This document shows positions 33,973 through 58,909 of a stretch of DNA of 64,000 nucleotides, one piece after another. Position numbers and translations under genes: made by a program. Within the stretch, counting starts at the first letter, position 1; each line of letters begins with the position of its first letter. The stretch is from Chitinophagales bacterium (GTDB lineage: Bacteria > Bacteroidota > Bacteroidia > Chitinophagales > LD1): assembly GCA_035299425.1 (NCBI GenBank), contig DATGWP010000080.1:95-64094 (forward strand), written 5' to 3'. The notes under the pieces were generated by a model. The model made no database searches and was not told where the DNA came from. It worked only from the letters and a program-made list of their open reading frames with translations.

Positions 33973-36900
33973 TTACTCTTTAATAAACGATTTTTTTACA
34001 ACTCCGTTTGCAGTGTGCAGGCTTATAACATAGCTGCCCTGGGCCAGCATGTTAACATCCAGGCGGGCCAGGTTGCCGGTTTCGGCCAGCACTTTAGCGC
34101 CCAGTACATTATGAACCTCTACAGCCTGCAACGTCACATCGCTCTTTATTATAAGCAGGTGTGTAGCCGGGTTAGGATACACTGCAATAGACGCTGAGGC
34201 CACATTGGCAATGCCCGAGATAATTACATTAACCTCTGCTGAAGTACCGGTGCAGCCATCGGCGCTGGTTACATCCACCTTGTAATCGCCCGTTTGCGTT
34301 GCCGTGTAAGTTTGTGCTGTAGCCAAAGAGATAGGGCCACCATCTAAATACCACTGGTAGCTGCTGCCGGTTACGCTGCTGGTAAGCACGGCATTGTTTT
34401 GCTGCACTACCGGTGCCGGTGTGGCATTTACAACCACCACAGCTGCATCCGAAGTATCGGTGCCGCAGGTACCGGTTACTTCTACTTTGTAGGTGCCGGC
34501 ATCGCTCACATTAGAAGAAGCAATGTTGAAGGATGCTGCTTCCGCACCGCTTACAAGCGTATCGTTCTTCCACCACTGGTAGTTCAGGCTGCCACCGGCA
34601 GCTGCTACATTAAGGTCAATTGCTTCGCCCGAGCAAACGGTCAGAGTGCTTGCCGGCTGGGTAGTAATGGCAGTAGCATCGACTATAGTAAGTGTTAGTG
34701 TAACTATGCTATCGCAGCTTTGGGCCGATGCAAGTGTATCGGCATAAACACCGGCTATGGTTAAAACATCGCCGTTGAAATCGTAGCTGCCACCCTGGCA
34801 AATGCTTTCGGCAAGTGTAGTGGTTATAGGCGCCAGCACCGTTAAGTGCAGGGTGATAATACTATCGCATCCATCTTGTGTTTGCACTGTTTCGGTATAG
34901 TTACCGCTTTGGGTAAGTGTTTGTGCAAAGAAGGTATAAGAACTGCCGTTGCAAATGGTTTCAGAAAAATCTCCTGTAAGCGCAGGGCTTACTGTAAGAT
35001 TAAGCGTGATAACGGAATCGCAGCCAACAGCGTTTACAAGCGTATCGTTATAAGCACCGCTTTGGGTAAGACTTTCGCCATTGAAGCTGTATGAATTGCC
35101 GGCGCATATTGTTTGACTAAACGCGCTGGCTGATGGTTGCAATATAGCTATAGTATGCGTGGCACTGGCCGAGCAGTTAGCACCTAATGATGCAGTAACT
35201 GTGTAAGTGGTAGTAGTGGCCGGCGATACAGTAATGGTTGAGTTGGTGCCTAAACCATTGCCCCAGGTGTAGGTGTTGCCACCGTTGGCAGTAAGCGATA
35301 CGCTGCCACCCGCACACACCGAGGTTGAACCGGTGATACTGGCAGTAGGTGTATTTTGCACACTTACTGTTTGCGATGCAGTAGCGGTACAGTTGTTAGC
35401 TGTAACGGTTACTGTGTATGTGGTTGCGCTAACCGGTGTTACCGTTATTGCAGCTGTAGTTTCGCTGTTGCTCCAGCTATAGGTACCGCCGCCACTGGCG
35501 GTAAGGGTAGCCGATAAGCCTGAACAAATGTTGGAAGGGCCATTGATAGCTGCCGTAGTAGAGTTAACCGTAATTGTAGCGCTGGCTGTAGCGCTACAGT
35601 TGTTAGCATCGGTTACGGTAGTAGTGTATGTAGTAGTAGTGGTGGGCGAAAGGTTCTGTATAGCATTGGCTGTTAAGCTACCGCTCCATACATAGCTGGC
35701 ACCGCCCGATGCAGTAAGCGTTTGCGAACCGCCCAGACAAATAGCTACCGACGAAGGCGAGATAGCCGCTACCGGTAAAGGATTAACTGTAATGGTACGT
35801 TGTGCTGTTGCACTACAGTTGTTGGCATCGGTTACAGTTACTGCATAAGCATTGGTAGTGCCCGGCGATACGGTAATAGCGGCTGTGGTGTTATTGGTGT
35901 TCCACAAGTAGCTGGTGCCGCCCGATGCAGTAAGTGTTGCGCTAGCACCGGCACAAAGCGTTACACTAGCCGGAGAAATAGCCGCCACCGGTAACTGGTT
36001 AACGGTAACAAGTTGCGAGGCTGTAGCCGAGCAGTTGTTTTGTGTAACGGTTACAGTATAGGTAGTAGCTGTAGCAGGCGATACTGTAACGGCTGCATTG
36101 CTACCTAACGAGTTGCTCCATGCGTATGAAGAGCCGCCAGTGGCAGTTAAGGTAGTAGAAGCCCCGGTGCAGATTGTTGCGTTACCTGATATTGCTGCTA
36201 CAGGATTGTTGTTTACTGTTACCAATACAGTATCGGATGTAACCGTGCCACAACTGCCACTAATTACCACACTGTAAGGCCCTGCATCGTTAGCCGTAGC
36301 CGATGCAATATTAAGCGTGGCAGTTTGGCTACCCAACACAGTTGAACCCCTACGCCATACGTAAGTAGTGTTGTTGCCACCGCTGCCCACTACCGATAAG
36401 GTAAGTGGTGCACCCACACACACAGCCTGCGCCAATGGCTGCTGCGATATGCTGGCAGATGTTACTACCGATAATACAGCAAGGGTAGAAGTATCGGCGC
36501 CACAGGTACCGGTAACTACTACCGAGTAGTCGTCGGCATCGTTAATAGTAAGCGATGGAATATTATATGTAGAGGCCGTAGCAAGGTTAATGTCACTTCC
36601 ATCTTTCTTCCATTGGTAAGTAAGACCAACACCCGCGGCCGCTACGTTAAACGTAACTGCTGAACCGGTGCAGGCAGTTTGCGATACCGGCTCGGTGGTA
36701 ATGTTGGTTATAGGGTTTACAGTAACTACTGATGATGCCGTTGCAGAGCAACTGTTAGCATCAGTTACGGTTACTGTGTAAGTGGTAGTAGCTACAGGCA
36801 ACACTAATTTGTTTGACCCTGTTCCTAACTGGTTGCTCCAGTTATAAGATGCACCACCGCTGGCGATTAAATTCTGCGATGCACCGCTGCAAATGGTAAC

Positions 36901-39900
36901 AGACGATGGGTTGATACCGGCAACCGGCAATTGGTTTACAGTAACCTGACGGGTAGCCGTTGTAGAGCAGTTGTTGCCATCGGTAACAGTTACAGTATAA
37001 GTGGTGGTGGTTGCAGGCGAAAAAGTGGCCGCTGCATTGCTGCCGCCGCTATTGCTCCAGGCATATGTAGTGCCACCGCTGGCGGTAAGTGTAGCCGATG
37101 AACCTAAACACACCGCTACAGATGCAGGTGCTATAGCAGCTGGTGGTAGGGCGTTTACAGTTACTACCCGGGTAGCCGTTGCGCTACATGTTCCGTTAGA
37201 TACAGTTACCGTGTAAGTAGTAGTACTAGTTGGGGAGAAAGTAGCTGCTGCATTGCTGCCGCCGCTGTTGCTCCAGGCGTAGTTAATACCTCCACTGGCG
37301 GTTAAAGTAGCCGATGCGCCGTTGCATATAGTAGCAGTTACAGGGCTGATAGATGCCGATGGTATAGAGTTAACAGTTACCAGGCGGCTGGCTGTAGCGC
37401 TGCAGCTGTTGCCATCGGTAACGGTAACTGTATAGGTAGTATTGGTAGTTGGCGAAAAAGTAGCCGCTGCATTGCTACCGCCGCTGTTGCTCCAGCTATA
37501 TGCTGTGCCGCCGCTGGCGGTGAGGGTAGCCGCATCGCCTGCGCATATAGTAACAGTGGCCGGGGCTATAGCAGCGGTTGGTAACTGGTTAACAGTTACA
37601 GTAGCTGTGGCTGTAGCCGAACAAGTGTTAGCACCGGTAACCGTAACCGTGTATGTAGTAGTTGTATTTGGAGAGAAAGTAGCCGCCGCATTGCTGCCGC
37701 CGCTATTGCTCCAGGCATAGGTGCCACCACCGCTGGCGGTGAGGGTAGCGCTTTGCCCTGTGCAAATAGCCACTGAAGCCGGTTGAATATTTGCCGATGG
37801 CAGTGCATTTACGTTTACCAATCGCGATGCCGTAGCCGAACAGTTATTGGCATTGGTAACAGTTACAGTATAAGTAGTAGCCGAGTTTGGCGAAAAAACT
37901 GCCTGTGCACTATTGCCACCCCCATTGCTCCATGCATAGGTGCCGCCACCGGTAGCTGTAAGTGTAGCCGTGCCACCTGCGCAGATAGTAACCGAAGCCG
38001 GTGTAATACCTGCTGTTGGGTTGCTGTTTACAGTAACCAGTCGCGATGCTGTGGCCGAACAGGTACCATCGCTTACGGTTACTGTGTAGGTGGTATTAGT
38101 GGTTGGCGAGAAGGTAGCCGTTGCATTGCTGCCACCGCTGTTGCTCCAGGCATAAGTTGTTCCACCACTGGCAGTAAGGGTAGCACTTTGGCCGTTGCAT
38201 ATTGTAACAGTAGCCGGAGAAATAGCTGCTGTAACAGCAGGCACTACTGTAACCGTTACGGTGTCTACATCAGCACATTGGCCGCTGTTGGTATTCATGG
38301 TTACCGTGTAGGTGGTAGTGCTGGCGGGCGATACGGTTTTTGTTGCGCCCAGGCCCAGGCCGTTGCTCCAGCTATAACTGGTAGGTGAAAACACACTGGC
38401 CGTAAGTGTTACCGAACTGCCCGCACAAATAGTGGGTGATGCAGGTGATACAGAACCATCGGCAAAACCGGTGATAGTAAGCGGGCGGGTTGCAAAATTA
38501 GAAGTGTCGCAAATATTGGCACGTGCTACACTAATACTGGTAGCACCTGTAGTGTATGGCATTTGAATTGTAATGATTATGCTGTCGGCGCCGCTAAGTA
38601 TAGTTGCACCGGCAGGTACATTCCATACATAGTAATTGCCGCCGCTGCCTCCACTGGCGCTAAACGAATAAATACCGCCCACACAAGGGGTGGAAATTCC
38701 ACCAAGAATGGATGTAGGTGCAGATGGGCCGGGGGTTAAGGTAACCAGTTTGGTAGCTGCTGTAGATATACCGCAAGGGGTATTAGCCCTTACGGAAATG
38801 GTTCCTGATGTAGTATTGGAAGTAACGGCTATAGTGTTGGTGGTAGAGGAGCCTGTCCAGCCCGATGGCAATGTCCAGGTGTAAGAGGTAGCGCCTGCTA
38901 CCGGTGCAGCAGTATACACAGCACCTGATAGAGAAAGGCAAGCTGTATCTAAACCGGTGATAGATGCCGGTGCCACCAAATTACAAGGCGAATGACGGGC
39001 AATATAAGCATCGTAGAGCGATGAAGAAGTAAGGGTTTGCACACCAGCCACCGAAGGGTCGAAATCGGCAGTGCCGGTAAAATAGCCACCGGTATATACA
39101 TTGGCGCTATCATCTAAGTCTATTACAAAAGCTTCATCGGTGGTAGAGCTGCCCATGGAGGTAACCCAGGTAAAGTTTCCTACTGAATCATATTTAGCAA
39201 TAAAAATATCGTTGGCGGTACTTGGCGAAGCGCCAATGTTAAAGAGAGCCGGAGAACCATCAAAGTCAACTGCAGCACCGGTAAAGCGGCCGGTTACATA
39301 TACATTGCTCGCATCATCGTGCGTTATTTGATATACCTGGGCCTGGTTGCTGGTGCCGGCGCCACTTATTCCCCTTGCCCAGGAACAAGTCCCGGCGGGG
39401 GTCCAGCTGCAAAAAAAGCCGGCAAGTGTACTTCCCTGAGCAGTGATCTGTATGCCACCAAAAACACCTACCCCCCAGTAAGCTCCACCCACAATAATAT
39501 TGCCCGATGGGGTTATATCTAAAGTAAAGCCATTATCATACTGGTTAGGTGTGGTAGTAGTGCCGCCCATAGCGCGCACCCATACATAATCTCCCGCATT
39601 GGTGTATTTAGCTAAAAATACATCTGTATTTACGCTCGAAGAAAGGTTAGCCGTACCTGCGCCGGCATTAAAATCGCAGGTGCCTAAAAACTGACCGGTG
39701 ATATATACATCATTGTTTGCATCTACTGCTATATCGCGGGCAACTACATCGGCCGTAGCACCACCCTGAAAAGCACGGGCATATAAGCACTTGCCGGCAT
39801 AGTCATATTTGGCAAAATACATATCGGCAGGTGCCGGAAAATTTACCTGCACAGCGGGTGAAAACGGATGTTCGAAGGTAATATTGGTGCTGCCAATAGT

Positions 39901-40467
39901 GCCGCATACAAAAATATTATCGGATGAATCGAGCGCCACACCATAAGCGTAATCGGACAAAGTACCGGTAATGCGCCGCGCCCACTGGTAATTGCCGGCT
40001 GAGTCATATTTAGCCACAAAGCCCTCTGGCCCGCCGCCCGATGTAAGGGTATTGGTGTTAGCCCCGGGGTCGAAATCTATAGCGCCACCGGCACTGAAAT
40101 AGCCAACAATTATTATCGAATCATTATTGCCCAAAGCCAGCGACATACCATAGTCATCGCCGGTTCCACCAATGCGCTTGGCCCACACATACTGGCCGGC
40201 GGTGGTGTACTTGGCAAAATAAATATCGTTGTTACCCGCCGATACAAGATTGGCAGTAGCTGTATCAGGGTTAAAATCTACAGTAGACTGGAAGCCCCCG
40301 ATTATATATACATAGCCGTTAGATACTACTAACCTGCGTACGTTATCGTTGCCGGTTCCGCTAGACTGGCCAATTTTTTTTGCCCAGTCGTATGATAACC
40401 CCCCTTGCTGTGCATAAAGAAGGACTGCGCACAGCGCCAAAATTGTGGTAGTAAAAATCCGCTTCAT
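33973..40467 (-). CDS. Giant T9SS-tailed surface protein: SBBP-like beta-propeller repeats, 13 tandem Ig-like Cys repeats, I-set-like Ig domains and a T9SS C-terminal domain
   Basis: ORF 33973..40503, with the start moved to ATG 40467 (MKRIFTTTILALCAVLLYAQ). The N-terminal third has repeated ...GxxYVTG...DFxP...DxFxAKYxxxGxxxW units. YQWKKDG-type Ig domains are present. The C-terminal tail is VYPNPATHLLIIKS.... Confidence 0.85.
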   Translation of the reverse strand: MKRIFTTTILALCAVLLYAQQGGLSYDWAKKIGQSSGTGNDNVRRLVVSNGYVYIIGGFQSTVDFNPDTATANLVSAGNNDIYFAKYTTAGQYVWAKRIGGTGDDYGMSLALGNNDSIIIVGYFSAGGAIDFDPGANTNTLTSGGGPEGFVAKYDSAGNYQWARRITGTLSDYAYGVALDSSDNIFVCGTIGSTNITFEHPFSPAVQVNFPAPADMYFAKYDYAGKCLYARAFQGGATADVVARDIAVDANNDVYITGQFLGTCDFNAGAGTANLSSSVNTDVFLAKYTNAGDYVWVRAMGGTTTTPNQYDNGFTLDITPSGNIIVGGAYWGVGVFGGIQITAQGSTLAGFFCSWTPAGTCSWARGISGAGTSNQAQVYQITHDDASNVYVTGRFTGAAVDFDGSPALFNIGASPSTANDIFIAKYDSVGNFTWVTSMGSSTTDEAFVIDLDDSANVYTGGYFTGTADFDPSVAGVQTLTSSSLYDAYIARHSPCNLVAPASITGLDTACLSLSGAVYTAAPVAGATSYTWTLPSGWTGSSTTNTIAVTSNTTSGTISVRANTPCGISTAATKLVTLTPGPSAPTSILGGISTPCVGGIYSFSASGGSGGNYYVWNVPAGATILSGADSIIITIQMPYTTGATSISVARANICDTSNFATRPLTITGFADGSVSPASPTICAGSSVTLTASVFSPTSYSWSNGLGLGATKTVSPASTTTYTVTMNTNSGQCADVDTVTVTVVPAVTAAISPATVTICNGQSATLTASGGTTYAWSNSGGSNATATFSPTTNTTYTVTVSDGTCSATASRLVTVNSNPTAGITPASVTICAGGTATLTATGGGTYAWSNGGGNSAQAVFSPNSATTYTVTVTNANNCSATASRLVNVNALPSANIQPASVAICTGQSATLTASGGGTYAWSNSGGSNAAATFSPNTTTTYTVTVTGANTCSATATATVTVNQLPTAAIAPATVTICAGDAATLTASGGTAYSWSNSGGSNAAATFSPTTNTTYTVTVTDGNSCSATASRLVTVNSIPSASISPVTATICNGASATLTASGGINYAWSNSGGSNAAATFSPTSTTTYTVTVSNGTCSATATRVVTVNALPPAAIAPASVAVCLGSSATLTASGGTTYAWSNSGGSNAAATFSPATTTTYTVTVTDGNNCSTTATRQVTVNQLPVAGINPSSVTICSGASQNLIASGGASYNWSNQLGTGSNKLVLPVATTTYTVTVTDANSCSATASSVVTVNPITNITTEPVSQTACTGSAVTFNVAAAGVGLTYQWKKDGSDINLATASTYNIPSLTINDADDYSVVVTGTCGADTSTLAVLSVVTSASISQQPLAQAVCVGAPLTLSVVGSGGNNTTYVWRRGSTVLGSQTATLNIASATANDAGPYSVVISGSCGTVTSDTVLVTVNNNPVAAISGNATICTGASTTLTATGGSSYAWSNSLGSNAAVTVSPATATTYTVTVTQNNCSATASQLVTVNQLPVAAISPASVTLCAGASATLTASGGTSYLWNTNNTTAAITVSPGTTNAYAVTVTDANNCSATAQRTITVNPLPVAAISPSSVAICLGGSQTLTASGGASYVWSGSLTANAIQNLSPTTTTTYTTTVTDANNCSATASATITVNSTTAAINGPSNICSGLSATLTASGGGTYSWSNSETTAAITVTPVSATTYTVTVTANNCTATASQTVSVQNTPTASITGSTSVCAGGSVSLTANGGNTYTWGNGLGTNSTITVSPATTTTYTVTASLGANCSASATHTIAILQPSASAFSQTICAGNSYSFNGESLTQSGAYNDTLVNAVGCDSVITLNLTVSPALTGDFSETICNGSSYTFFAQTLTQSGNYTETVQTQDGCDSIITLHLTVLAPITTTLAESICQGGSYDFNGDVLTIAGVYADTLASAQSCDSIVTLTLTIVDATAITTQPASTLTVCSGEAIDLNVAAAGGSLNYQWWKNDTLVSGAEAASFNIASSNVSDAGTYKVEVTGTCGTDTSDAAVVVVNATPAPVVQQNNAVLTSSVTGSSYQWYLDGGPISLATAQTYTATQTGDYKVDVTSADGCTGTSAEVNVIISGIANVASASIAVYPNPATHLLIIKSDVTLQAVEVHNVLGAKVLAETGNLARLDVNMLAQGSYVISLHTANGVVKKSFIKE
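35140..36220 (-). repeat. Five more tandem copies of the same repeat family (second block)
   Basis: Protein repeats begin NNNPVAAISGNATICTG... and end ...LGANCSASATHTIAI. Boundaries are approximate. Confidence 0.8.
36715..38465 (-). repeat. Eight in-frame tandem coding repeats of about 216-222 bp (72-74 aa Ig-like Cys units)
   Basis: The unit is ..P.A.I.PA.VTIC.G.SATLTASGG.TYAWSNSGGSNAAATFSP...TTYTVTVTD.N.CSATA.R.VTVN. The TTGCTCCA(G/T)GC (WSN) signature recurs near 36833, 37053, 37270, 37489, 37707, 37925, 38143 and 38363. Boundaries are approximate. Confidence 0.85.
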
Positions 40468-40529: not shown

Positions 40530-40559
40530 TTCATGAACCCCCTGTTTTGGGTTCACGAA
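40530..40559 (-). promoter_or_regulatory. Inverted repeat between the RR1 stop and the start of the 2164-aa gene (terminator or operator)
   Basis: TTCATGAACCC and GGGTTCACGAA are separated by 8 nt and are complementary at 10 of 11 positions. No T-run follows on the minus strand. Confidence 0.35.
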
Positions 40560-40590: not shown

Positions 40591-41346
40591 TCAATGTCGC
40601 CCAATCCTTATTTCGCGGAAAGAATCTTCAAACTCCTTCTTCCTTTCTTTTGAAACAGGCATGGCAATGCCGTTATCCATTTCTATAAAGCTTTCGAGGC
40701 GGCTATACTTTTTTACAAAATTGAGATTGATGAGATGCGACCGGTGAATCCGGAAAAAATTCTTTCGGCGCATTAAAAGGTCTTCAAAAAATTTGAGCTT
40801 TTTACTCACCAGCAGTTTAGAGCCATCGGCCAAAAACACATGTGTGTAAGCGCCTTCGGCCTGCAACTGGGTAATGTTGCCCACTTCGACAAACAACAAG
40901 CCATCGCTTACAGGCACCGCTATTTTGCTAAACTCATCCCCCTGAAAATTTTGCTGCAGCACTTCAAGCCTTTGTTTCATGTTGTGGCTGGTGCGCCGTG
41001 CCTTTACTTTTTCTACAGCGGCTTTTAGTTTATCTACCTGCACCGGTTTAAGCACATAGTCTACTGCCGAGTATTCGAATGCCTGCACCGCATACTCACT
41101 GTAAGCGGTTACAAATACAATTTCGAAATCTACCGTATCGAAAAAGTTCATCAATTCAAAACCACTAAACTCAGGCATTTCAATATCCAGAAAAACCACA
41201 TCGGGCTGGTGCTGTTTTATGGCCAGCACCGCTTTGGGCACATTGGCGCATTGCTCCTGTATTTTTACTTCCGGGCAGTGAGTAGTCAGCAAGGTTTCAA
41301 GCCCGCGGCGGGCTCTTTCTTCATCATCTACAAGTATTGCTTTCAT
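40591..41346 (-). CDS. Response regulator, REC + LytTR DNA-binding domain (RR1)
   Basis: 251 aa. REC motifs are MKAILVDDE and FLDIEMP. The C-terminal LytTR-like region reads ...FFRIHRSHLINLNFV.... It overlaps HK1 by 4 nt. Confidence 0.9.
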   Translation of the reverse strand: MKAILVDDEERARRGLETLLTTHCPEVKIQEQCANVPKAVLAIKQHQPDVVFLDIEMPEFSGFELMNFFDTVDFEIVFVTAYSEYAVQAFEYSAVDYVLKPVQVDKLKAAVEKVKARRTSHNMKQRLEVLQQNFQGDEFSKIAVPVSDGLLFVEVGNITQLQAEGAYTHVFLADGSKLLVSKKLKFFEDLLMRRKNFFRIHRSHLINLNFVKKYSRLESFIEMDNGIAMPVSKERKKEFEDSFREIRIGRH

Positions 41347-49463: not shown

Positions 49464-49507
49464 GCAGCAACTTTAGCTATGGTTCAACTTTATGGTATGA
49501 AAAGCAG
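49464..49507 (-). promoter_or_regulatory. Conserved two-box motif, copy 2, between RR2 and HK2
   Basis: On the plus strand, GCAGCAACT (49464..49472) is followed after 21 nt by GGTATGAAAAGCAG (49494..49507). The exact 8-mer CAACTTTA occurs twice, 17 nt apart (49468 and 49485). Confidence 0.5.
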
Positions 49508-49536
49508 TATAGGTGGTACAAAATACATTGCGGGCA

Positions 49537-50262
49537 TTATTGCACACGTTTTAACCGTTCGAAAAGCTCATCTTTAAAATTGCGGCTAAGCGGAATAGAG
49601 GCTTTGTTCATCACTACTTCGGTATGCGAAAAGGACTCTATTTTTTTAAGGTTAACGATATAGCTTTTGTGCACCTGCATAAAATCGTTTACAGGCAGGT
49701 TGGCCATAAAATCGCGAAAGCTGGAACGCACAATGTGTTTTGCCTTTTCTGTAACCAGGTACAAATAGTTGTGATCGCTCTCCAGCCAGAGTATATCGGC
49801 TACGTTTACTTTTACAAAATGCGTATCGGTTTTTACAAACAGGCTATCGTTTACTATGCCCACCGGGCCGGTTTGCTCTACCTTGCTGCCGGTAAATGAT
49901 GCAAGGGCCACTTCTATACTTGCAAACAGGTCTTGCTGCGAAAAGGGTTTAATTAAATACCCATTGGGCAATGTTGCCGCTGCTTTGGTCACCGTATCCT
50001 TATCGCTATAGGAAGTAATAAAAATAAGAGGCAACTTATACTTGCTGCGAATCAGTTGCGCAAAATCAATTCCCGATTTACCGCTGCCTAAATTTATATC
50101 GGATAAAACAATATCGGGCTTTTCTGCTTCCATGCGGCTTACCGCCTCTTCATAACTATAGGCCGGGTCCAGCACTTCGTAGCCAATCTGGGTTAGCATA
50201 GCCGCCATATCCATAGCTACCAGCGCTTCATCTTCTACAATCAATATTCTCACTTCGCTCAT
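49537..50262 (-). CDS. Response regulator, REC + LytTR DNA-binding domain (RR2)
   Basis: ORF 49537..50337, with the start moved to ATG 50262 (MSEVRILIVEDE...). The discarded N-terminal extension covers the terminator of the upstream giant gene. The LytTR-like C-terminus reads ...FMQVHKSYIVNLKKI.... Confidence 0.88.
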   Translation of the reverse strand: MSEVRILIVEDEALVAMDMAAMLTQIGYEVLDPAYSYEEAVSRMEAEKPDIVLSDINLGSGKSGIDFAQLIRSKYKLPLIFITSYSDKDTVTKAAATLPNGYLIKPFSQQDLFASIEVALASFTGSKVEQTGPVGIVNDSLFVKTDTHFVKVNVADILWLESDHNYLYLVTEKAKHIVRSSFRDFMANLPVNDFMQVHKSYIVNLKKIESFSHTEVVMNKASIPLSRNFKDELFERLKRVQ

Positions 50263-50296: not shown

Positions 50297-50370
50297 TAAA
50301 AAATCCCCCTCTGCTTTGCGCAAAGGGGGACAAACAAAACTCAATCACCCCTGCCAGGCAGAGGTGATTG
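50297..50370 (-). terminator. Tandem terminator hairpins of the 1930-aa gene
   Basis: One hairpin is AATCACCCCTGCC/GGCAGAGGTGATT, at about 50344..50370. The other is TCCCCCT/AGGGGGA (50304..50330) followed by a T-run on the minus strand. The second is homologous to the terminator at 33892..33925. Confidence 0.75.
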
Positions 50371-50378: not shown

Positions 50379-53300
50379 TTAGTCTTTTACAAAAGATGTC
50401 CTGACAACACCGTTTGCAGTTTGAATGCTTAGCATATAGGTGCCCTGCGCCAGGGTGCTTACCTGCAGGCGGTTAACAGGTCCGTGTTCAATCAGCACCT
50501 TTTCACCCAATACATTGTAAACATCCACCCCCTGTATCATAACATCGCTGCTTATAAACAATACATCGGCAGCAGGGTTAGGATAAACCTTAACGGATGT
50601 ACCTGCCAGGTTTTCGATACCTGATATAATAACGTTTACCTCTGCAGAAGTTCCGGTGCATCCATCGGCATTTGTAACCTCTACTTTGTAATTGCCGGTT
50701 TGTGTAGCGGTATATGATTGCTGCGTAGCTGTGTTTATTATACTGTTATTAAAATACCATTGATAAACTGAGCTGGTAACACTACTGGTAAGCACCGCGC
50801 CGTTTTGCTGAATAACAGGTTCCGGTGTGGCGTTTATCACCACTACAGCTTCGGCAGATGTATCCGCCCCGCAGGTACCTGTTACAGCTACCTTGTAAGT
50901 GCCGGCATCGGCAAGTACAGTGTTGCCTACGGCATAAGCACTTACTGCTGAGCTGACAATGACCGCGTTATCTTTAATCCACTCGTAAACCAGGTTGCTG
51001 CCATCGGCGGTAACATCCAGGCTAAAGCCTAAGCCCGAGCAAACGGTAGTTGAAGCAACCGGCTGAGTAGTGATAGAAGTTGCCTGCCCCAAAGCAAGTT
51101 CCAGTGTAACTACGCTATCGCAGCTTTGTACCGAAGTAAGCGTATCATAATAAGTGCCTGCCTGTGTAAGTATGTCGCCGTTAAAATCGTAGCTATCGCC
51201 TGCGCAAATAGTCTGGCTAATGGTAGTAGCCACAGGTGCAAGCACCGTAAGGTTTAGTGTAATTACGCTATCGCAACCTACAGCGTTGGCAATAGTACGT
51301 GTGTAAACACCTGATGCAGTTATACTGTTGCCATCAAAAGTAAATGACTCGCCATTGCAGATAGTCTGGCTGAATGTGCTGGCCGATGGCTGTAATACTT
51401 CTACAGTATGCGATGCACTTGCCGAGCAGTTAGCGCCCAGCGATGCAGTTACCGTATAAGTACTGGTAGCCGATGGCGAAACAGTAACTGCGGCATTAGT
51501 ACCCAGGTTATTGCTCCAGCTATAGGTATTGCCCCCATTGGCAGTAAGCGTTACGCTTTCTCCCGCGCATACAGTTGTTGAACCGGTAATACTTGCCGTA
51601 GGACCACTCTGCACACTAATAGTCTGGCTGGCGGTGGCGGTGCATCCGCTCAAGGTAGCCGTTACCGTGTAAGTAGTAGCTGCCGATGGCGTAACAGTGA
51701 TGGCCGCAGTAGTTTCGTTGTTGCTCCAGTTATAGGTAGTGCCACCGGTTGCCGTTAAGGTAGCTGATAGGCCCGCACAAATGGCCGTTGGTCCGTTAAT
51801 AGATGCATTTACAGCTATTACACTAACCGCTTGCGAGGCAGTAGCCGAGCAGTTACCCGCACCGGTTACAGTTACAGTATAAGTAGTAGTGGCCGATGGG
51901 GTGAAAGTGGCGGCTGCATTGTTGCCACCGCTATTGCTCCAGGCGTAAATGCCGTTACCCGTTGCAGTAAGTGTTACTGGCTGACCGGCGCACACAGATG
52001 AAGCACCACTAATGGAAGCAATTGGCAGAGGATTAACCGTGATAGTAGCAGATGCAGTGGCTGAACAGTTATTAGCGTTAGAAACAGTAACCGTGTAGGT
52101 AGTAGTAGTGGCTGGTGCAACTGCCTGGCTGGATGCAGTGCCCAGGTTATTGCTCCACGCATAGGTGCTTCCGCCACTGGCATTAAGCGTTGTAGATACC
52201 CCCGCACATACCGTAGCCGAAGCCGGGCTAACTGCTGCGGTAGGATTGCTGTAAGCACTCACTAATTGCGAAGCAGTGGCGGAGCAAGTACCGTTTGTAA
52301 CGGTTACGCTATAGGTAGTGTTGGCTGATGGCGAAACAGTAACTGCGGCATTGTTGCCCAAGCCATTGCTCCACGTATACGTGCTGCCACCGGTTGCTGT
52401 AAGCGTTGTAGAGCCGCCAGGGCACACACCAAAGGCACCCGTAATACCTGCTGTAATTCCGTTGCTTACTGTAACTGCTACCGTATTGGATGTAACCGTG
52501 CCGCAACTGCCTGTAATTACTACGTGGTAGTTGCCCGCATTGGCAGCAGTAGCATTAGCTACACTGTAAGTAGCCGATGTAGCTCCATTAATATTCTGGC
52601 CGCCTTTGCGCCATTGGTAGGTGGTGTTATTACCTGCACTACCGGTTACTGATAAGCTAAACGGACCATTTACGCATACAGTTTGTGCAACGGGCTGTTG
52701 CGTTATAGCCGCTGATGAAATTACTGTAACAGTTGCCGCTGGCGAAGTAATGCTACCGCACGTGCCGGTTGCTGTAACTGTATAACTGCCGCTATCGCTT
52801 AAGGCAGCCGCAGGTATAGTGAAAGTGCTGTTGGTTGCATTTGCTATAACCACGTTGTTCTTCTTCCATACATAAGTGATAGTGCCTGCACCCGATGGAA
52901 CGCAGACTAATTCTATCTGTGTACCGGAGCACACTGTTTGCGATGCCGGGGTTTGGACAAAACTTGTGCTACCCAATACCGAAAGGCTGGCAGCATTAGA
53001 TGTGGTGCTACCACATGTACCAGTAACCGAAACAGAGTAATTGCCTATATCGCCTGCGGCTGTATTTAAAATAGTTAATGTGCTGGTAGTGGTGCCGGCA
53101 TAGTGGCCGTTATCGTTTATAGCCGTATTGCCCTTGCGCCATTGGTAAGTAAGCAGACCGGTACCGGTGGCAGTTACCGCAAATGTAGTGGTTGAATCCT
53201 GGCAGGTAGATGTGGCCTGTGGCTGCACCATAATGGCAGTAACAGGATTGACAGTAAGCAGGGCTGCGTTGGATGTTTGCGGCCCGCAGGTAGAGGTCAT

Positions 53301-56171
53301 TACGCAGGTATAACTACCGCTATCGGCTGCTGTAACCGAAGCAATATTATAAGAAGCGCCGGTGGCGTCGCTGATGTTTACGCCGTTTTTCTTCCACTGG
53401 TAAGTACCGCTGCCACCTGTAATAGCAATTGAGAAGCCAGCCGGCTGTCCGGGACACACCGTTACATTTTGCGGGTGCGATGATATAGTAGCGCCGGCAG
53501 CAATACCCAAAGTTGCGCTATAAGTTTCGCTGTTGTAGCAGGCATTGCTGATAACACAGGTATAAGTACCGGTATCGGTAGAGGCTACAGTGTTTATAGT
53601 ATAAGTTGCGTTGGTAGCACCGTTAATTAATGCGCCATTCTTTTTCCATTGGTAAGTAAGCCCGCTTTCATAACCGGCAGCTGTAAAGCTGGCCGTAGCG
53701 CCTATACACGCAGTAGTGTTAACCGGATTGCGGGTAATAGAAGGTAATTGGGCTACTAATCCGATTTCGGATTCGGTTAATGCGCGGTTGTAAATGCGTA
53801 TTTCATCCATAAAACCGTTCAGGGTATTAGCGCCACTTTGGTCAGCACCAAAACGTAATGGCGCCGTGTTGTTTGCAATGTTACCGGTAGCGGCAGTGCT
53901 TAACACCAAAGCGCCATTGATATATATTTTAACGGTAGCGCCATCGTACGTGCAAACTGCGTGGTACCAAGTGCTGCTGTTTAGCACTGGAGTAGTATGG
54001 TACGCATTACCCAGTATAATTACACGCAGGCGCGATTGATACAAATCCATTAAAAAGTTATTCGAACTGTTTTTATCTATCAACCGCTGGCTGCCGGCAA
54101 TCACATTTGATTTAAACCAGCAGGCTATGGTAATTTGATTGGTAAAGGAAGCAATAGCAGGATTGGAACCTATAGTAAGATAACTGCCGCCGCCTGGAAA
54201 ACTAAAGGCATCGAAACCATTGCCGTTACGGTCTGGCCCAGAGGTCATACCACCGGTTATACCGGGGTTGCCCATATTACTGGCGCTGAAATCTTTATAA
54301 AATTCGCCATTGATATTTACGGCGGGGTAATAAGCTACCAACCCGGTGCTGCTTACAGGTGCTGCCGGCATGCGGGTAAGTAATGCAGGATTTGAAGTAA
54401 CAGTACCGCAGGTATTTGTTGCAATTAATGTATACGCACCGGTATCGGCTAATGTGGCGTTATTAATTGTGAGTGTGGTTGTAGTAGCGCCATTTACATC
54501 AACACCGTTTTTCTGCCATTGGTAAGTATTATTGCTACCGTTTACAGCAGCTGTAAAGGTTATGTTTTGTGTGCCACAAATAGTAGCGCTTACAGGTTGT
54601 ACGCTAAAACCCGGCTCGCAACCCAGCTTAATTAAAAAGCCATTGTTGTTTACTGTGCTTATAGGCGATAGGGTGCCGGCTGTAAGATTATTGGCGTGGG
54701 TACCGGCCAGATAAACAACATTGCCCGAAATAGCAATACCTCCCGTTGTGGTATTATTGCCCTGGCTGTTAGTATTGTTTGCCCCCTCGCGGATGTAATA
54801 ATTATTGGCCCACACTGCAGAGGTGCCAGAGGCATAAGTCAGTTTATATACTAATATACCCGGGTAAGCATCAAGATTGCCTAAACTACCGCCAGGATAT
54901 GAAGGATTATAACTCCATGGAAAGCCACCTGCAGTTGCATGTCCGCCAACAGCTGCCCATATATTGCCATCTGTATCAAACCCTATGCCCTTGCCCGATA
55001 ATACACGGCCGGCACCCGAAGTAGTTGATACGGTATTTTGCCATGGACTGGCGAAGGATGCATTAAACCCACCAAACTGTATATAGGAAGCATTGCCGCC
55101 GTAACCAACCTCAAGCATATACGCCAGTTGTCCGTTTGGTTTTACAGCCAGGCCTTTAAACCGGTTAGTTACACCGGTGTTGCCAACCGATTGCGTACCC
55201 TGGTATACAAGGCTCGCGTTCAGTTTAATAATAATACCATAGCCATATATAGTACTGTTAATTTGCTGCCCGCCACCATTGTATTGCAGCGTTGTATATG
55301 AGCCCGATACGCTGGTTGCCATAAAAACATTTCCGTTTGCATCGGTACGTATTTCATCTATAAACTCCTGCCCAAAGCCGGCCTCGGCACCGTAGCGATA
55401 AAAATCTACCATGGCACCATTGGTATTGGTTATACGGCCATACCAGGTTTCGTAAAAATTAGTATTGTTTGCCGAGCCCATATTTACATTGGTGCCCGAC
55501 CCCGGATTGCGGTAATTAAAGTTTTGTGTAGAGGCGCTGGCCAGGTTATTGGTATTTACACTTGCACCAAAGTATACATAGCCCGTAAAGGCATCGTGGC
55601 ATATAACCATATTGGCTACATCGCCGGCACCTGAATATCCCATGCTATGTGTAAACTGGGCTACACCACCGCTGTTTAGTTTTACAATAAAGCCGTTAAT
55701 GCTACCTATATTGCTGATGGCAGTATTTGTATTACCAATATCAAAGGTTGTAGTAACACCATTGCCTGATGCATCGGTACCGGCGTAATAAACATTGCCG
55801 CTGGCATCTACAGCAATTGCAGTAGGCGTTAAGTAGGCAAAGCTGCCGTAAGTGGGGGTATGCACCCACTGCGGCACACCGGCCGGGTTGAACTTAGCCA
55901 CAAAGCAGCCCCGCATATTGGTATTGCCCATGGCTGGCAGCACCGTGCTGCCAATGGTTAACGTAGAGTTGTAATGCCCGCATACGTAAGTGTTGCCCGC
56001 CGCATCAGCTACTACATCGGTAAAATTTTCGAGCGAGCCGCCGCTGATGGTATTAGCCCACGTAAAACTTTGCGCGTAGCCGGAATTAAAAGCAAACAGC
56101 GCCAGGCAGAAAAGCAATACGAGGGGCATTGTTGTTTTTCGCCTTGTTTGCTTAAAGAATAAATTTTTCAT
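50379..56171 (-). CDS. Giant T9SS-tailed surface protein: beta-propeller-like repeats, LamG/ConA-like lectin domain, about 7 I-set-like Ig domains, 5 tandem Ig-like Cys repeats, 2 CDS modules and a T9SS C-terminal domain
   Basis: ORF 50379..56201, with the start moved to ATG 56171 (MKNLFFKQTRRKTTMPLVLLFCLALFAFNSGYAQ). The LamG-like stretch is ...ITIACWFKS...WYHAVCTYDG..VKIYINGAL...LRFG...FNGFMDEIRIYNRAL. The tail is VYPNPAADVLFISS.... The C-terminal ~800 aa is collinear with that of the 33973..40467 gene. Confidence 0.85.
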   Translation of the reverse strand: MKNLFFKQTRRKTTMPLVLLFCLALFAFNSGYAQSFTWANTISGGSLENFTDVVADAAGNTYVCGHYNSTLTIGSTVLPAMGNTNMRGCFVAKFNPAGVPQWVHTPTYGSFAYLTPTAIAVDASGNVYYAGTDASGNGVTTTFDIGNTNTAISNIGSINGFIVKLNSGGVAQFTHSMGYSGAGDVANMVICHDAFTGYVYFGASVNTNNLASASTQNFNYRNPGSGTNVNMGSANNTNFYETWYGRITNTNGAMVDFYRYGAEAGFGQEFIDEIRTDANGNVFMATSVSGSYTTLQYNGGGQQINSTIYGYGIIIKLNASLVYQGTQSVGNTGVTNRFKGLAVKPNGQLAYMLEVGYGGNASYIQFGGFNASFASPWQNTVSTTSGAGRVLSGKGIGFDTDGNIWAAVGGHATAGGFPWSYNPSYPGGSLGNLDAYPGILVYKLTYASGTSAVWANNYYIREGANNTNSQGNNTTTGGIAISGNVVYLAGTHANNLTAGTLSPISTVNNNGFLIKLGCEPGFSVQPVSATICGTQNITFTAAVNGSNNTYQWQKNGVDVNGATTTTLTINNATLADTGAYTLIATNTCGTVTSNPALLTRMPAAPVSSTGLVAYYPAVNINGEFYKDFSASNMGNPGITGGMTSGPDRNGNGFDAFSFPGGGSYLTIGSNPAIASFTNQITIACWFKSNVIAGSQRLIDKNSSNNFLMDLYQSRLRVIILGNAYHTTPVLNSSTWYHAVCTYDGATVKIYINGALVLSTAATGNIANNTAPLRFGADQSGANTLNGFMDEIRIYNRALTESEIGLVAQLPSITRNPVNTTACIGATASFTAAGYESGLTYQWKKNGALINGATNATYTINTVASTDTGTYTCVISNACYNSETYSATLGIAAGATISSHPQNVTVCPGQPAGFSIAITGGSGTYQWKKNGVNISDATGASYNIASVTAADSGSYTCVMTSTCGPQTSNAALLTVNPVTAIMVQPQATSTCQDSTTTFAVTATGTGLLTYQWRKGNTAINDNGHYAGTTTSTLTILNTAAGDIGNYSVSVTGTCGSTTSNAASLSVLGSTSFVQTPASQTVCSGTQIELVCVPSGAGTITYVWKKNNVVIANATNSTFTIPAAALSDSGSYTVTATGTCGSITSPAATVTVISSAAITQQPVAQTVCVNGPFSLSVTGSAGNNTTYQWRKGGQNINGATSATYSVANATAANAGNYHVVITGSCGTVTSNTVAVTVSNGITAGITGAFGVCPGGSTTLTATGGSTYTWSNGLGNNAAVTVSPSANTTYSVTVTNGTCSATASQLVSAYSNPTAAVSPASATVCAGVSTTLNASGGSTYAWSNNLGTASSQAVAPATTTTYTVTVSNANNCSATASATITVNPLPIASISGASSVCAGQPVTLTATGNGIYAWSNSGGNNAAATFTPSATTTYTVTVTGAGNCSATASQAVSVIAVNASINGPTAICAGLSATLTATGGTTYNWSNNETTAAITVTPSAATTYTVTATLSGCTATASQTISVQSGPTASITGSTTVCAGESVTLTANGGNTYSWSNNLGTNAAVTVSPSATSTYTVTASLGANCSASASHTVEVLQPSASTFSQTICNGESFTFDGNSITASGVYTRTIANAVGCDSVITLNLTVLAPVATTISQTICAGDSYDFNGDILTQAGTYYDTLTSVQSCDSVVTLELALGQATSITTQPVASTTVCSGLGFSLDVTADGSNLVYEWIKDNAVIVSSAVSAYAVGNTVLADAGTYKVAVTGTCGADTSAEAVVVINATPEPVIQQNGAVLTSSVTSSVYQWYFNNSIINTATQQSYTATQTGNYKVEVTNADGCTGTSAEVNVIISGIENLAGTSVKVYPNPAADVLFISSDVMIQGVDVYNVLGEKVLIEHGPVNRLQVSTLAQGTYMLSIQTANGVVRTSFVKD
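51400..52475 (-). repeat. Five tandem copies of the same ~215-bp repeat family in the second giant gene
   Basis: Protein repeats begin GITAGITGAFGVCPGGSTTLTATGGSTYTWSNGLGNNAAVTVSP... and end ...LGANCSASASHTVEV. The WSN signature recurs near 51510, 51722, 51935, 52150 and 52368. Confidence 0.8.
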
Positions 56172-56298
56172 AACGATTGAATTTTGTTTGAGCGCAAACA
56201 TCCTTCAAGCACGCCCTGTATTCCAGGCAACTTCATAAACGGTAGGTTTGAGTATATGAATGGTAAATAGCTATGTAGTCATATGCTATATTTGCCGC

Positions 56299-58170
56299 AT
56301 GAGCTTCTACGGCACCTCTATACCCGATTTATTAAAACGCCTTGAAACTGAAACTGGAGCGGCCAAGGCTAATACCTATTTATACCTGGCTGTAGAGCAT
56401 AAAGCAAGCGACCCGGTCACAGCTTTAAGCTATGCCAACCTTGCCTTAGAAATCTGTAGCGCAGAAAATTTAAAGGAAACCGAAATAGACTACTGGACAG
56501 TGCGCGCTATTTTAGAAGAAGGCGTTTCGGCATCAGAAAAAGCTATTGAGCATTTAGAAAAGGCGGTGGCCATAGCTGCCGAAATAAAAGATGAACAAGG
56601 TCGGCTTACAGCCCTGCAAAAAATAGGGCTGCACAAAATGCGGCAACATAAAACTGATGAAGCCGGTGAGATTTTAATGCGCTGTGTAGAAGACTACAAA
56701 CTGCTGCCCGACACCCTAATGAAAGCGGAATGCTATCACCAAACGGCACAGTATTTAATGAATGTTGATTTGAAGCAAGCTGTTGAAATAGCTTTGAGCG
56801 GATTGGCAATAGCCAAAAACATTGGCCGCCCGCTGGACCAGGTACACCACCTGAAAACGTTGTTGAATATAGCCGCTAAAAGCGGTGATGACGACAAGGC
56901 TATTGAATATGGGTTAGAAGCATTGCGGATTAAAGAGGAGAACAATGACCAGACTGCATTGCTGGGTACAGCACGGCGAATAGCACACCTTTATTTGAAA
57001 CGTAACGAGCAAGTGCTGGCGCAAAAATATTTTGAACGCGAAGTGCAATTACATGCAGCACCCGTAAATATACACCGCACCGCACAACTACAGTTGGAAG
57101 ATGCTGAAAGCTATTTTTACAGCGGGCGTGTAGCAGAGGCGCTGACTTTTGCAAAGCAAGCTATAAACATTGCCACTGCAGAAAACAACCTGCGTAAACT
57201 CGGCAATGCCGAGTTTCAGATGGGCAATCTTCTTTTTTTGAATAAAGAATTTAATGCGGCCATCCCATATCTGGAGAAGTCCATCCTGACAAAAGGTGAT
57301 GCGATTGCTGCTAACGACCATATTGCCACGCTTGATTTACTGCACCAATGCTATGAGCAGGCTGAGCAATACATGGAGGCTTATACTACGCTGAGAAAAA
57401 AATCGGCGCTGGAGGCAGAACTGATAAACAGCGAGCGTATAAAAGAAGTAACCCAACTTAACAAGCGCTACGAAACGGAAAAGCGGGAAGCCGAATTGCG
57501 CGACTTAAAAATAAAGCAACAGCAAACAGAGCTTGAGCGCAGCGAAAGCGAATTGAAAGCCATTAAGGCACAAATGAACCCGCACTTCATATTTAATGCG
57601 CTGAACAGTATACAGGAGATGTTTTTTATAGGCGATAAACGATTGGCCAACGAGCACCTGGGCAAATTCAGTCAGTTAACGCGCGAGATCCTAAAAGCCA
57701 GCGGCAAACAATACATTACGTTATCTGAGGAAATAGAAATGCTGAAAAAGTATCTGGACCTTGAAGGCCTGCGCTTTGAAAAGGACTTTTCATTTTCCGT
57801 AACAATGAATAATGAAGATGCCGCTGACGATATTTTACTACCGCCCATGCTGATACAGCCATATGTGGAGAACAGTATTCGCCACGGCTTATTACATAAG
57901 CAAGGCGGAAAAAGCATTTCGATAGATTTTGTTTTTGATGAACCTGCCAGGCAATTGCGCTGCACGGTGAGCGATAATGGAGTAGGGCGCAAAGCATCAT
58001 CTGAAATAAACAAAGGGCGCAAACAATTGCATGAGTCGTTTTCTACCTCTGCCAACGCTAAGCGCTTAGAACTACTTAACCAAAACCGCGACGAAAAAAT
58101 AGGAGTAGAATATGAAGATTTGGAGAACGGAACTAAAGTAGTGATATTGATACCCGTAAGCTATGATTAA
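56299..58170 (+). CDS. TPR-domain LytS/YehU-type histidine kinase with no evident TM segment (HK3)
   Basis: ORF 56260..58170. The start is either ATG 56299 (MSFYGTS...) or ATG 56260. TPR-like repeats and a coiled coil precede KAQMNPHFIFNALNSIQ and an ATPase domain. I found no hydrophobic helix. Confidence 0.82.
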   Translation: MSFYGTSIPDLLKRLETETGAAKANTYLYLAVEHKASDPVTALSYANLALEICSAENLKETEIDYWTVRAILEEGVSASEKAIEHLEKAVAIAAEIKDEQGRLTALQKIGLHKMRQHKTDEAGEILMRCVEDYKLLPDTLMKAECYHQTAQYLMNVDLKQAVEIALSGLAIAKNIGRPLDQVHHLKTLLNIAAKSGDDDKAIEYGLEALRIKEENNDQTALLGTARRIAHLYLKRNEQVLAQKYFEREVQLHAAPVNIHRTAQLQLEDAESYFYSGRVAEALTFAKQAINIATAENNLRKLGNAEFQMGNLLFLNKEFNAAIPYLEKSILTKGDAIAANDHIATLDLLHQCYEQAEQYMEAYTTLRKKSALEAELINSERIKEVTQLNKRYETEKREAELRDLKIKQQQTELERSESELKAIKAQMNPHFIFNALNSIQEMFFIGDKRLANEHLGKFSQLTREILKASGKQYITLSEEIEMLKKYLDLEGLRFEKDFSFSVTMNNEDAADDILLPPMLIQPYVENSIRHGLLHKQGGKSISIDFVFDEPARQLRCTVSDNGVGRKASSEINKGRKQLHESFSTSANAKRLELLNQNRDEKIGVEYEDLENGTKVVILIPVSYD

Positions 58171-58909
58171 GGCTATAATAATAGATGATGAAGCAAAAGC
58201 GCGGCGCATAATAGAGGCGCTGCTGAAAGAGTATTGCCCCGATGTAGAGGTTGTAGCCATAGCCGAAGATGTGCCATCAGGCGTTATTGCTATTAACCAG
58301 CACAAACCCGATGTATTGTTTTTAGATGTAGAGATGCCCGGCTATACCGGTTTTCAGTTGCTAGATTTTTTTCGCGATATAGATTTTGAAATTGTGTTTA
58401 CCACTGCCCACAGCGATTATGCCGTGCAGGCTTTTCGTGTAAGTGCGATTGATTTTTTATTGAAGCCTATACAGATATCAGAATTAATAGCCGCAGTAGA
58501 AAAAGTAAAGCTAAAGCAGGGGCAGAATAAAGAGCGCATTTCTATATTGAAAGAAAACTTTAAAGATAATTCGATAAAAAAACTGGCGCTACCGGTTGCC
58601 GAAGGTTTAACCTTTGTAGACACTGATACGCTTACACATTTAGAAGCGGACGGAGCCTATACGCATTTTCATTTTGCCGAAGGCCGCAAAATTATTGTAA
58701 GCAAAAAGATAAAGGAGTTTGAAGAAGCATTGACGCAGCAGAACAATTTCTTCAGAACGCACCGGTCATTTATAGTAAACCTGAAGAAGATAAAACAATA
58801 CGTAAAACAGGAAGGCGGCTATGTGTTGCTGGATAACGAAATTCAAATACCATTGGCGCGCGAACGGAAGGATGAGTTTATGCAGGTAATAGAAAGGATG
58901 AGTTTATGA
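58163..58909 (+). CDS. Response regulator, REC + LytTR DNA-binding domain (RR3; paralog of RR1)
   Basis: 248 aa. It aligns with RR1 along its full length: IIDDEAKARR vs LVDDEERARR, FLDVEMP, and FFRTHRSFIVNLKKI vs FFRIHRSHLINLNFV. It overlaps HK3 by 8 nt. Confidence 0.9.
   Translation: MIKAIIIDDEAKARRIIEALLKEYCPDVEVVAIAEDVPSGVIAINQHKPDVLFLDVEMPGYTGFQLLDFFRDIDFEIVFTTAHSDYAVQAFRVSAIDFLLKPIQISELIAAVEKVKLKQGQNKERISILKENFKDNSIKKLALPVAEGLTFVDTDTLTHLEADGAYTHFHFAEGRKIIVSKKIKEFEEALTQQNNFFRTHRSFIVNLKKIKQYVKQEGGYVLLDNEIQIPLARERKDEFMQVIERMSL

Follow-up and report, generated by a model that had tools for sequence, protein, structure and literature searches.

Three LytTR two-component systems paired with type IX secretion cargo genes in a Chitinophagales genome

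Gene content of the three modules

The window analyzed here is a stretch of 64,000 nucleotides from a metagenome-assembled Chitinophagales genome (GenBank assembly GCA_035299425.1, contig DATGWP010000080.1, positions 95 to 64,094 of the forward strand), and all coordinates below are positions in it unless a relative is named. The segment 33973-58909 consists of nine genes that make up three modules, each encompassing a histidine kinase (HK), a response regulator (RR) of the REC + LytTR type and a large protein with the features of type IX secretion system (T9SS) cargo. Seven of these genes lie on the minus strand in the order Giant3 (50379..56171; 1930 amino acids (aa)), RR2 (49537..50262), HK2 (47491..49443), Mid (44348..47377; 1009 aa), HK1 (41343..44228), RR1 (40591..41346) and Giant1 (33973..40467; 2164 aa), and the pair HK3 (56299..58170; 623 aa) and RR3 (58163..58909) is on the plus strand, divergent from Giant3. 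An earlier note, made from the letters of this DNA alone, had described these open reading frames (ORFs) and their strands, and had stated that each large protein adjoins its own kinase and REC + LytTR regulator; the ORF list agrees with the former, and the ORF layout and domain matches agree with the latter. According to the ORF list, no gap between genes exceeds 130 bp, which leaves no space for a further regulator, so that the claim that no other type occurs in these 25 kb stands as well.

The longest ORFs for Giant1 and Giant3 start at 40503 and 56201, respectively. We prefer the starts at 40467 and 56171 because these ATG codons align with the start codons of the orthologues, and the HK3 start at 56299 is matched by orthologues that are all about 623 aa long, with a coverage of 100%. 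The shorter starts proposed earlier for these three genes, and for RR2 (241 aa from the ATG at 50262), were the right ones.

The three large proteins all match two sorting-domain models at their extreme C-termini, namely PF18962 (Por_Secre_tail; 32.4, 36.1 and 35.9 bits, with a cut-off of 27) and TIGR04183 (33.8, 31.6 and 35.6 bits, with a cut-off of 23), so that the T9SS type-A tails recognized earlier by eye exceed the curated cut-offs. The signal peptides were likewise found in 3 of the 3 proteins as a hydrophobic N-terminal segment after a basic start, a call made by sequence inspection and a hydropathy scan rather than by a dedicated predictor. Between these ends, Giant1 contains an SBBP beta-propeller, PKD_6, about 14 Ig_7 repeats and Ig_3/I-set domains; Giant3 contains a lectin-like Laminin_G_3 domain (E = 1e-29), an Ig_3/I-set array and Ig_7 repeats; and Mid contains an N-terminal beta-helix-like region, a choice-of-anchor Q domain and Cys-rich repeats. 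The C-terminal sorting domain (CTD) follows in each case. Giant1 and Giant3 are 50% identical over their C-terminal ~1150 aa, that is, about half of the protein. PDB searches with these two proteins yielded only generic matches to a beta-propeller (CylK) and to Ig domains, and the search with Mid yielded none.

All three regulators combine PF00072 (Response_reg) with PF04397 (LytTR), the latter with E-values from 4e-15 to 4e-19; an exact-sequence database look-up of RR1 gave no match. The kinases differ in their sensor regions. HK1 combines Reg_prop (PF07494, 72.6 bits), Y_Y_Y (PF07495, 54 bits) and His_kinase (PF06580, 77 bits) domains, in a layout with a signal peptide or transmembrane (TM) segment at residues 1-25, a periplasmic double beta-propeller with Y_Y_Y at ~26-721, a TM segment at 722-746 and then the PF06580 kinase; its periplasmic domain matches PDB entries 3v9f, 4a2l and 3ott (E = 2e-22 to 7e-13). 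HK2 has a periplasmic TPR sensor, a TM segment at approximately residues 401-425, HisKA_2 (PF07568, 96 bits) and HATPase_c, and lacks PF06580. HK3 consists of TPR repeats and PF06580 (82 bits), and, given that it contains no hydrophobic segment, is probably a cytoplasmic TPR kinase. All the sorting-domain, LytTR and kinase models named for a check of this kind by the earlier note have therefore been matched.

The same note had read the locus as a triplicated circuit, and this holds for two of the modules but not for the third. Modules 1 and 3 are paralogous, with identities of 50% between RR1 and RR3, 48% between the kinase cores of HK1 and HK3 and 50% between the C-terminal halves of the cargo proteins. 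With all three components at about 50%, they look as if a complete unit of kinase, regulator and cargo had been duplicated long ago, after which the sensor would have been changed. RR2 is only 21-25% identical to RR1 and RR3 and its kinase is of the HisKA_2 type; by these comparisons, module 2 is a separate lineage.

Conservation of the modules in related genomes

We traced each module through orthologues that were obtained by protein searches and contig look-ups, with orthology judged by BLASTP; the HK1 orthologues (45-86% identity) are separated by a gap from paralogues at 37% or less. The order HK1-RR1-T9SS cargo is kept in 7 of the 8 orthologous contexts (the window and the loci L001/L002, L003-5, L006/7, L009, L093 and L175), with kinase identities of 52-86% and cargo proteins of 903-2176 aa, and the RR1 orthologues are 78-96% identical. 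The flanks of module 1 are unrelated between genomes; in L006, the trio is located amid housekeeping genes.

For module 2, a cargo gene follows RR2-HK2 in three of the four readable contexts, that is, in the window, in L009 (73%) and in L010/11 (57%), and the Mid orthologues downstream of HK2 are 49-73% identical. In the fourth, L176 (53%), the gene downstream of HK2 encodes an aconitase, and a T9SS cargo gene of 1360 aa is found instead upstream, in divergent orientation. In several relatives, a beta-helix gene of ~390 aa precedes RR2 (L001 15797-16975, L009 7805-8965 and L010 7942-9066), its product sharing 50% identity with the first 311 aa of Mid. The window lacks this gene, and RR2 there directly adjoins the terminators of Giant3.

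For module 3, HK3-RR3 is accompanied by a divergent T9SS cargo gene in four of six contexts (the window, L003-5, L093 and L175). L093 carries, at 7673-11391, two tandem TPR + PF06580 kinases (45% and 70% identical to HK3) followed by a single RR3 orthologue, adjacent to the divergent cargo; the two may be sensors that feed one regulator.

The three modules are shuffled relative to one another between genomes, each staying intact, and thus behave as independent units. L009, for example, has the order HK1-RR1-Giant1-betahelix-RR2-HK2-Mid-TPR447.

T9SS cargo genes at the output position across Bacteroidota

A neighborhood survey had been suggested as a check on the pairing, and we carried it out on a wider family. 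A genome scan of species representatives across Bacteroidota gave at least 80 HK1-like loci with 25-38% identity. Genome and metagenome scans together yielded, among the matches listed, only distant relatives (25-50% identity), which served as background samples; all survey counts given below and in the Discussion likewise refer to the matches listed. An adjacent LytTR regulator is present in 65 of the 77 loci with a callable kinase ORF. CTDs were scored at fixed positions around the two-component system with a hidden Markov model seeded from the window's five Pfam-verified CTDs, and the gene directly downstream of the system (D1) was considered scoreable when a regulator adjoined the kinase and the downstream gene was complete, which was the case for 59 of the 80 loci listed.

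At D1, 32 of the 59 genes encode a T9SS CTD, compared with 3/57 for the gene directly upstream, 3/52 and 2/49 for the second and third genes upstream, and 7/53 and 8/52 for the second and third genes downstream. The D1 count is identical when made with Pfam (32 members with PF18962). The difference between D1 (54%) and the pooled upstream positions (8/158, ~5%) corresponds to an odds ratio of 22 (Fisher p = 5e-15), so that the pairing of LytTR systems with T9SS cargo is not only kept in relatives but enriched. Among the D1 cargo genes, 29 of 32 are co-directional with the system. Their products range from 317 to 2423 aa, with very diverse domains. The conserved property is therefore that of being T9SS cargo, and not the large size stressed in the earlier description of the pairing. 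The cultivable species with an HK1-like system followed by T9SS cargo include Kordia algicida OT-1 (NZ_CP142125.1, about 1.307-1.316 Mb; locus L033, with a cargo of 1329 aa), Aquimarina rubra KCTC 52274 (L025, 1304 aa), Psychroserpens sp. S379A (L029) and Flavobacterium profundi TP390 (L047).

Module-specific double sites upstream of the cargo genes

Each module carries a double sequence element of its own in front of the cargo gene. In module 1, the element TTCGTGAA-N14-TTCATGAA (40530..40559, minus strand), which has a period of 22 bp and is a candidate RR1 operator, is located within the RR1-Giant1 spacer, 63 bp upstream of the Giant1 ATG. Its consensus, TTCRTGAA-N14-TTYRTGAA, has a single exact match in the window (40530-40559) and occurs once per orthologous module, in the same place, being absent from the rest of the 176 loci. 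This pattern was fixed before L093 and L175 were obtained, and each of these then contained one match, in the predicted spacer. In L006, the site is the only alignable part of the 450-bp spacer between RR1 and the cargo gene. A relaxed form with N13 is found in six distant loci, each time in front of a CTD-bearing T9SS cargo gene; the regulators of these loci are 55-58% identical to RR1 or RR3, so that the candidate operator follows the regulator. These loci keep the TTCRTGAA half-sites but neither the spacer nor the GC pairs that would lengthen a hairpin stem.

Elsewhere in the window, a copy of the module-1 element with two mismatches (TTCGTGAC-N14-TTGTGAA, 24501-24530, minus strand) lies between two other T9SS cargo genes, PhoD and GH31, ~215 bp upstream of the GH31 start. 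With 0.3 copies expected at two mismatches or fewer, it may be due to chance.

Module 2 has two such sites, with the consensus RTAMC-N7-YTGCNNNTNRTAMC and a period of 21 bp. One precedes Mid (ATACC-N7-TTGCATCTTGTACC, 47443..47477, minus strand) and is overlapped by the 14-mer CTGCTTTTCATACC (47464-47477, minus strand); the other is in the gap between RR2 and HK2 (GTACC-N7-CTGCTTTTCATACC, 49494..49519, minus strand) and is a candidate RR2 operator, possibly for feedback on HK2. Both sites are found in the window, L009 and L010, and the one before HK2 is present also in L001 and in L176. In L176, the divergent 1360-aa cargo gene has the site as well, oriented toward that gene. Neither the aconitase gene nor the beta-helix gene is preceded by the site, which, except for one stray match, is confined to module-2 loci.

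In module 3, the 35-bp element ACCATTCATATAC-N8-ACCGTTTATGAAGT (56230..56264, minus strand; 21-bp period), a candidate RR3 operator, is embedded in the 127-bp region between the divergent Giant3 and HK3. It is the sole match in the window even when three mismatches are allowed (0.00 expected), and it was detected in the window, L003-5, L093 and L175, that is, in the contexts with a cargo gene, and is absent from HK3 orthologues without one. The half-sites of modules 1 and 3 are similar to each other. The periods of 21-22 bp fit the architecture of LytTR operators, given that LytTR target promoters contain two repeats of 9-11 nt with a spacer of 11-13 nt (PMC4847170).

Downstream of each double site there is a -7-like box followed by a conserved box in the 5' untranslated region (UTR). 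In the putative promoter-proximal regions, these are TATTGTTG (40488-40495) and CAAACAAAACTC (40475-40486) for Giant1, and GATGTTTG (56195-56202) and CAAACAAAATTC (56179-56190) for Giant3, all on the minus strand. The promoter consensus of Bacteroidota is TAnnTTTG, and from it we infer that the -7-like boxes are -7 promoter elements. A sigma-70 promoter scan gave fewer matches than shuffled sequences, the model being unsuited to Bacteroidota promoters.

The 5' UTR boxes of Giant1 (40475-40486) and Giant3 (56179-56190) share the sequence CAAACAAAAYTC, 10-15 nt before the ATG, and the reverse complement, GAGTTTTGTTTG, immediately precedes the conserved terminator at the 3' end of the giant genes (50331-50342, plus strand, and 33919-33933, minus strand), so that the 5' and 3' ends of the giant mRNAs are complementary over 12-16 nt. 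The window contains three exact copies of the box, against 1.1 expected even with a mismatch tolerated; all orthologues keep the 5' box, and only close relatives keep the 3' box.

The modules are set apart by terminators on the minus strand. Two strong hairpins after Giant3 (50303..50370, with stems of 13 and 12 bp) separate it from RR2; a terminator-like hairpin with a T-run after Mid (GGCCCGCC...GGCGGGTTTTTTT, 44272..44306) separates it from HK1; and a hairpin after Giant1 (TTTTGTTTATCCCCCTTTGC...GCAGAGGGGGATTTTTTT, 33890..33935) insulates it from the radical-SAM gene.

The surrounding region

The window includes two further T9SS cargo genes, GH31 (22563-24287) and PhoD (24548-26434), neither of which has an adjacent two-component system. 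A comparison with L092 (GCA_044225825.1) delineates the region: this genome is syntenic with the window over 22563-61425, with GH31, PhoD(T9SS), CysMet and TPR447 followed by HK3, RR3, DUF2400 and fumarylacetoacetase (FAH) in the same order, minus the block at 31.8-56.2 kb. In place of the S9 peptidase gene, the radical-SAM pair, modules 1-2 and Giant3, it has a gene for a PrsW protease, and it carries module 2 elsewhere (L010), beside genes for an M1 peptidase and dnaN. Because L092 shares the flanks yet lacks the block, we regard this as a variable region and not a mobile island. The latter possibility was rejected given that the window contains no tRNA gene, Rfam family or integrase, and that the only rise in GC content is within the giant genes, which are rich in Thr, Ala and Gly codons.

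The 11-gene minus-strand block that had been delineated earlier (56171 down to 28072) is co-directional as described, but it is not one unit. A single operon is rejected in view of the terminators after Giant3, Mid and Giant1 and the shuffling or partial absence of the modules in relatives. The radical-SAM/DUF4130 pair included in it was also dismissed as a part of the system, being of the widespread TIGR03916/TIGR03915 DNA-repair type and absent beside the modules in L009 and L092. The start listed for the radical-SAM ORF (32581-33945, minus strand) is a TTG within reach of the Giant1 terminator, which it overlaps; given that TIGR03916 is matched only from residue 42 onward, the real start is probably the ATG at 33831. 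Unrelated to the modules, two tandem paralogous genes of 639 aa, with DUF3857 and transglutaminase-core domains, occupy 13446-17271 on the plus strand.

Discussion

Taken together, these observations support the pairing of sensor, LytTR regulator and T9SS cargo proposed in the earlier note. Gene content, domains, conserved adjacency, the conserved double sites of each module, the terminators and the enrichment by position across Bacteroidota are shown by the analysis, and we consider it likely that the main, perhaps the only, output of each two-component system is the adjacent gene for a T9SS surface protein. That the regulators bind DNA and activate transcription, which signals are sensed and what the cargo does are inferred. 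In the mechanism that we envisage, the periplasmic double beta-propeller/Y_Y_Y domain of HK1 would sense a ligand, probably a glycan, the TPR domain of HK2 a periplasmic signal and that of HK3 a cytoplasmic signal. Each kinase would phosphorylate its partner REC + LytTR regulator, and two regulator molecules, bound to half-sites 21-22 bp apart and ~30-35 bp upstream of the -7-like box, would activate transcription of the cargo gene; the RR2 site before HK2 would provide feedback. The cargo would then leave the cytoplasm by Sec, cross the T9SS by means of its type-A CTD and be displayed on the surface as an adhesin-like or lectin-like protein.

Several observations weigh against so dedicated a wiring. 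The evidence for regulation is comparative throughout. The HK1 orthologue in L008 is an orphan kinase, and the HK3-RR3 orthologues of L092 and L094 have no neighboring cargo gene. No T9SS machinery genes are present within the 64-kb window. A sample of generic PF06580 kinases from metagenomes shows only a weak excess of cargo genes (7/48 vs 5/95), which suggests that the adjacency rule is limited to particular kinase subfamilies. Finally, the module-1 half-sites are near-palindromic and an 11-bp hairpin can be drawn through the element, so that a role at the RNA level is possible.

The alternative that fares best, although we regard it as unlikely, is that the cargo, besides being an output, takes part in the sensing itself, such that the exported protein or its cleaved CTD feeds back on its own kinase in the manner of PorA, a CTD protein, and PorY in Porphyromonas gingivalis. 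The kinase, the regulator and the cargo are co-inherited as a trio, the periplasmic domain of HK1 is very large, and a precedent exists in which the ligand of a two-component kinase is a T9SS CTD protein (PMC12152298, PMC7712824). In that case, the module would convey the state of secretion or contact with a surface. However, HK3 has no periplasmic part and is nevertheless paired in the same way, we found no sequence sign of contact between kinase and cargo, and the partner cargo proteins of the wider family are very diverse in size and domains, as would be expected of an output rather than of a conserved co-sensor. Sensing and output might also be combined in a closed loop, in which the displayed cargo, the cleaved CTD or an unsecreted periplasmic precursor would be sensed by the module's own kinase; we give this idea the same low standing, and it is most plausible for HK1, whose 700-aa beta-propeller domain it fits best. 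If it were true, adhesin expression would be tuned by surface contact or secretion status, and PorA-PorY signaling of a per-cargo kind would be widespread in Bacteroidota.

A quite improbable alternative is that the conserved elements act in RNA, as a hairpin, attenuator or processing site within a read-through HK1-RR1-Giant1 transcript and together with the conserved UTR boxes, the cargo being simply co-transcribed with a two-component system that regulates something else. The module-1 element can be folded into the 11-bp hairpin in all five sequences, where the changes are single-sided and wobble-compatible, and the 5' UTR box CAAACAAAAYTC is complementary to the box that precedes the giant-gene terminators at the 3' end. 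Against this, no compensatory double changes were seen among the five sequences, so that covariation lends the hairpin no support, the distant loci keep the half-sites rather than the spacer or the GC stem extension, the hairpin is not followed by a T-run, the elements of modules 2 and 3 are direct repeats that cannot form hairpins of the module-1 kind, and each element is followed downstream by a -7-like box. That the neighborhood is fortuitous, some of the many LytTR systems and T9SS cargo genes of Chitinophagales genomes happening to lie together in a variable region while the regulators control other genes, is highly improbable: the GH31 and PhoD cargo genes without a two-component system, the absence of the 31.8-56.2 kb block from the syntenic L092 and the HK3-RR3 pairs without cargo in L092 and L094 would be compatible with it, but the adjacency persists at 52-86% identity in differing neighborhoods, T9SS cargo is found at ~5% of the control positions versus 54% at the output position, and module-specific conserved sites precede the cargo genes.

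The preferred reading, in which the cargo gene is the output of its adjacent system, bears on a subject about which almost nothing is established, namely, the control of individual T9SS surface proteins in environmental Bacteroidota. The regulation that has been studied, PorXY-SigP, concerns the secretion machine of one oral pathogen. The survey suggests a widespread rule whereby HTCS-like beta-propeller kinases (see below) and LytTR regulators, one system per gene, are wired to the T9SS cargo gene directly downstream. If so, the known range of the LytTR family would extend beyond quorum sensing, autolysis, pyruvate sensing and the control of alginate and pili. With candidate operators at hand and the same arrangement present in cultivable species, the question is directly testable.

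Comparison with known systems

In peptide quorum sensing of the AgrA and ComE type, genes for a pheromone precursor and its export accompany an HPK10 kinase; the kinases described here have beta-propeller or TPR sensors instead. No genes for a peptide pheromone precursor or its processing were found in the modules, where the intergenic gaps of at most 130 bp are too small for them.

In Porphyromonas gingivalis, FimS/FimR, and in Pseudomonas aeruginosa, FimS(AlgZ)/AlgR likewise exert two-component control over a surface adhesive structure. Type IV pilus genes are under the control of AlgR, a LytTR regulator, whereas FimR is of the OmpR type. Within HK2, the TPR region (residues 58-276) is matched by the NCBIfam model for FimS of P. 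gingivalis with 63 bits, far below the cut-off of 600. Both systems act on operons for fimbriae or pili and not on T9SS cargo genes.

Hybrid two-component systems (HTCS) of Bacteroides, which control polysaccharide utilization loci, are single proteins in which a kinase and a receiver are fused to a DNA-binding domain of the AraC type. HK1 has the same sensor, with Reg_prop beta-propellers and Y_Y_Y (PDB 4a2l/4a2m, 3v9f and 3ott), but ends after the PF06580 kinase core; its LytTR regulator is a separate protein, and the neighboring gene encodes T9SS cargo. No SusC or SusD genes were found near the modules.

A two-component system tied to the T9SS, with a CTD protein in the circuit, is PorY/PorX-SigP of P. 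gingivalis together with PorA (PMC4800418, PMC12152298). PorX, with a REC + PglZ architecture and no LytTR domain, acts on the T9SS machinery genes through an extracytoplasmic function (ECF) sigma factor and PorL, and the profile searches detected neither a PglZ nor a sigma-factor domain in the nine proteins. PorXY-SigP is a single global system, whereas the modules analyzed here are dedicated to one cargo each. Literature searches found no paper that links LytTR systems to T9SS cargo; a preprint on RgzAB of F. johnsoniae was considered as a precedent and set aside, being concerned with a different type of system.

The systems that our modules would resemble in their mode of action are BtsS/BtsR (YehU/YehT) and YpdA/YpdB of E. 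coli, which share with them the PF06580 kinase core (HK1 and HK3) and a REC + LytTR regulator. Each of the two is devoted to a single direct target gene, the promoter of which contains two repeats 11-13 nt apart (PMC4847170). BtsR is the best NCBIfam match for RR1 and RR3, but the scores against the BtsR equivalog (NF008677), 144.5 bits for RR1 and 121.9 bits for RR3, are well below the cut-off of 246, and neither protein is therefore a BtsR orthologue; the corresponding scores for the LytR equivalog (NF010684) are 110.6 and 86.9 bits, with a cut-off of 375. The sensors also differ: LytS, BtsS and YpdA have a five-TM sensor, whereas HK1 has two hydrophobic segments around its 700-aa domain, HK2 has one TM segment and HK3 has none. 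In addition, the core of HK2 is HisKA_2, and the target here is a T9SS surface protein rather than a transporter. We consider it a moderately interesting novelty that LytTR systems appear to be dedicated to T9SS cargo, working, as the comparison suggests, like single-target systems of the BtsS/BtsR type.

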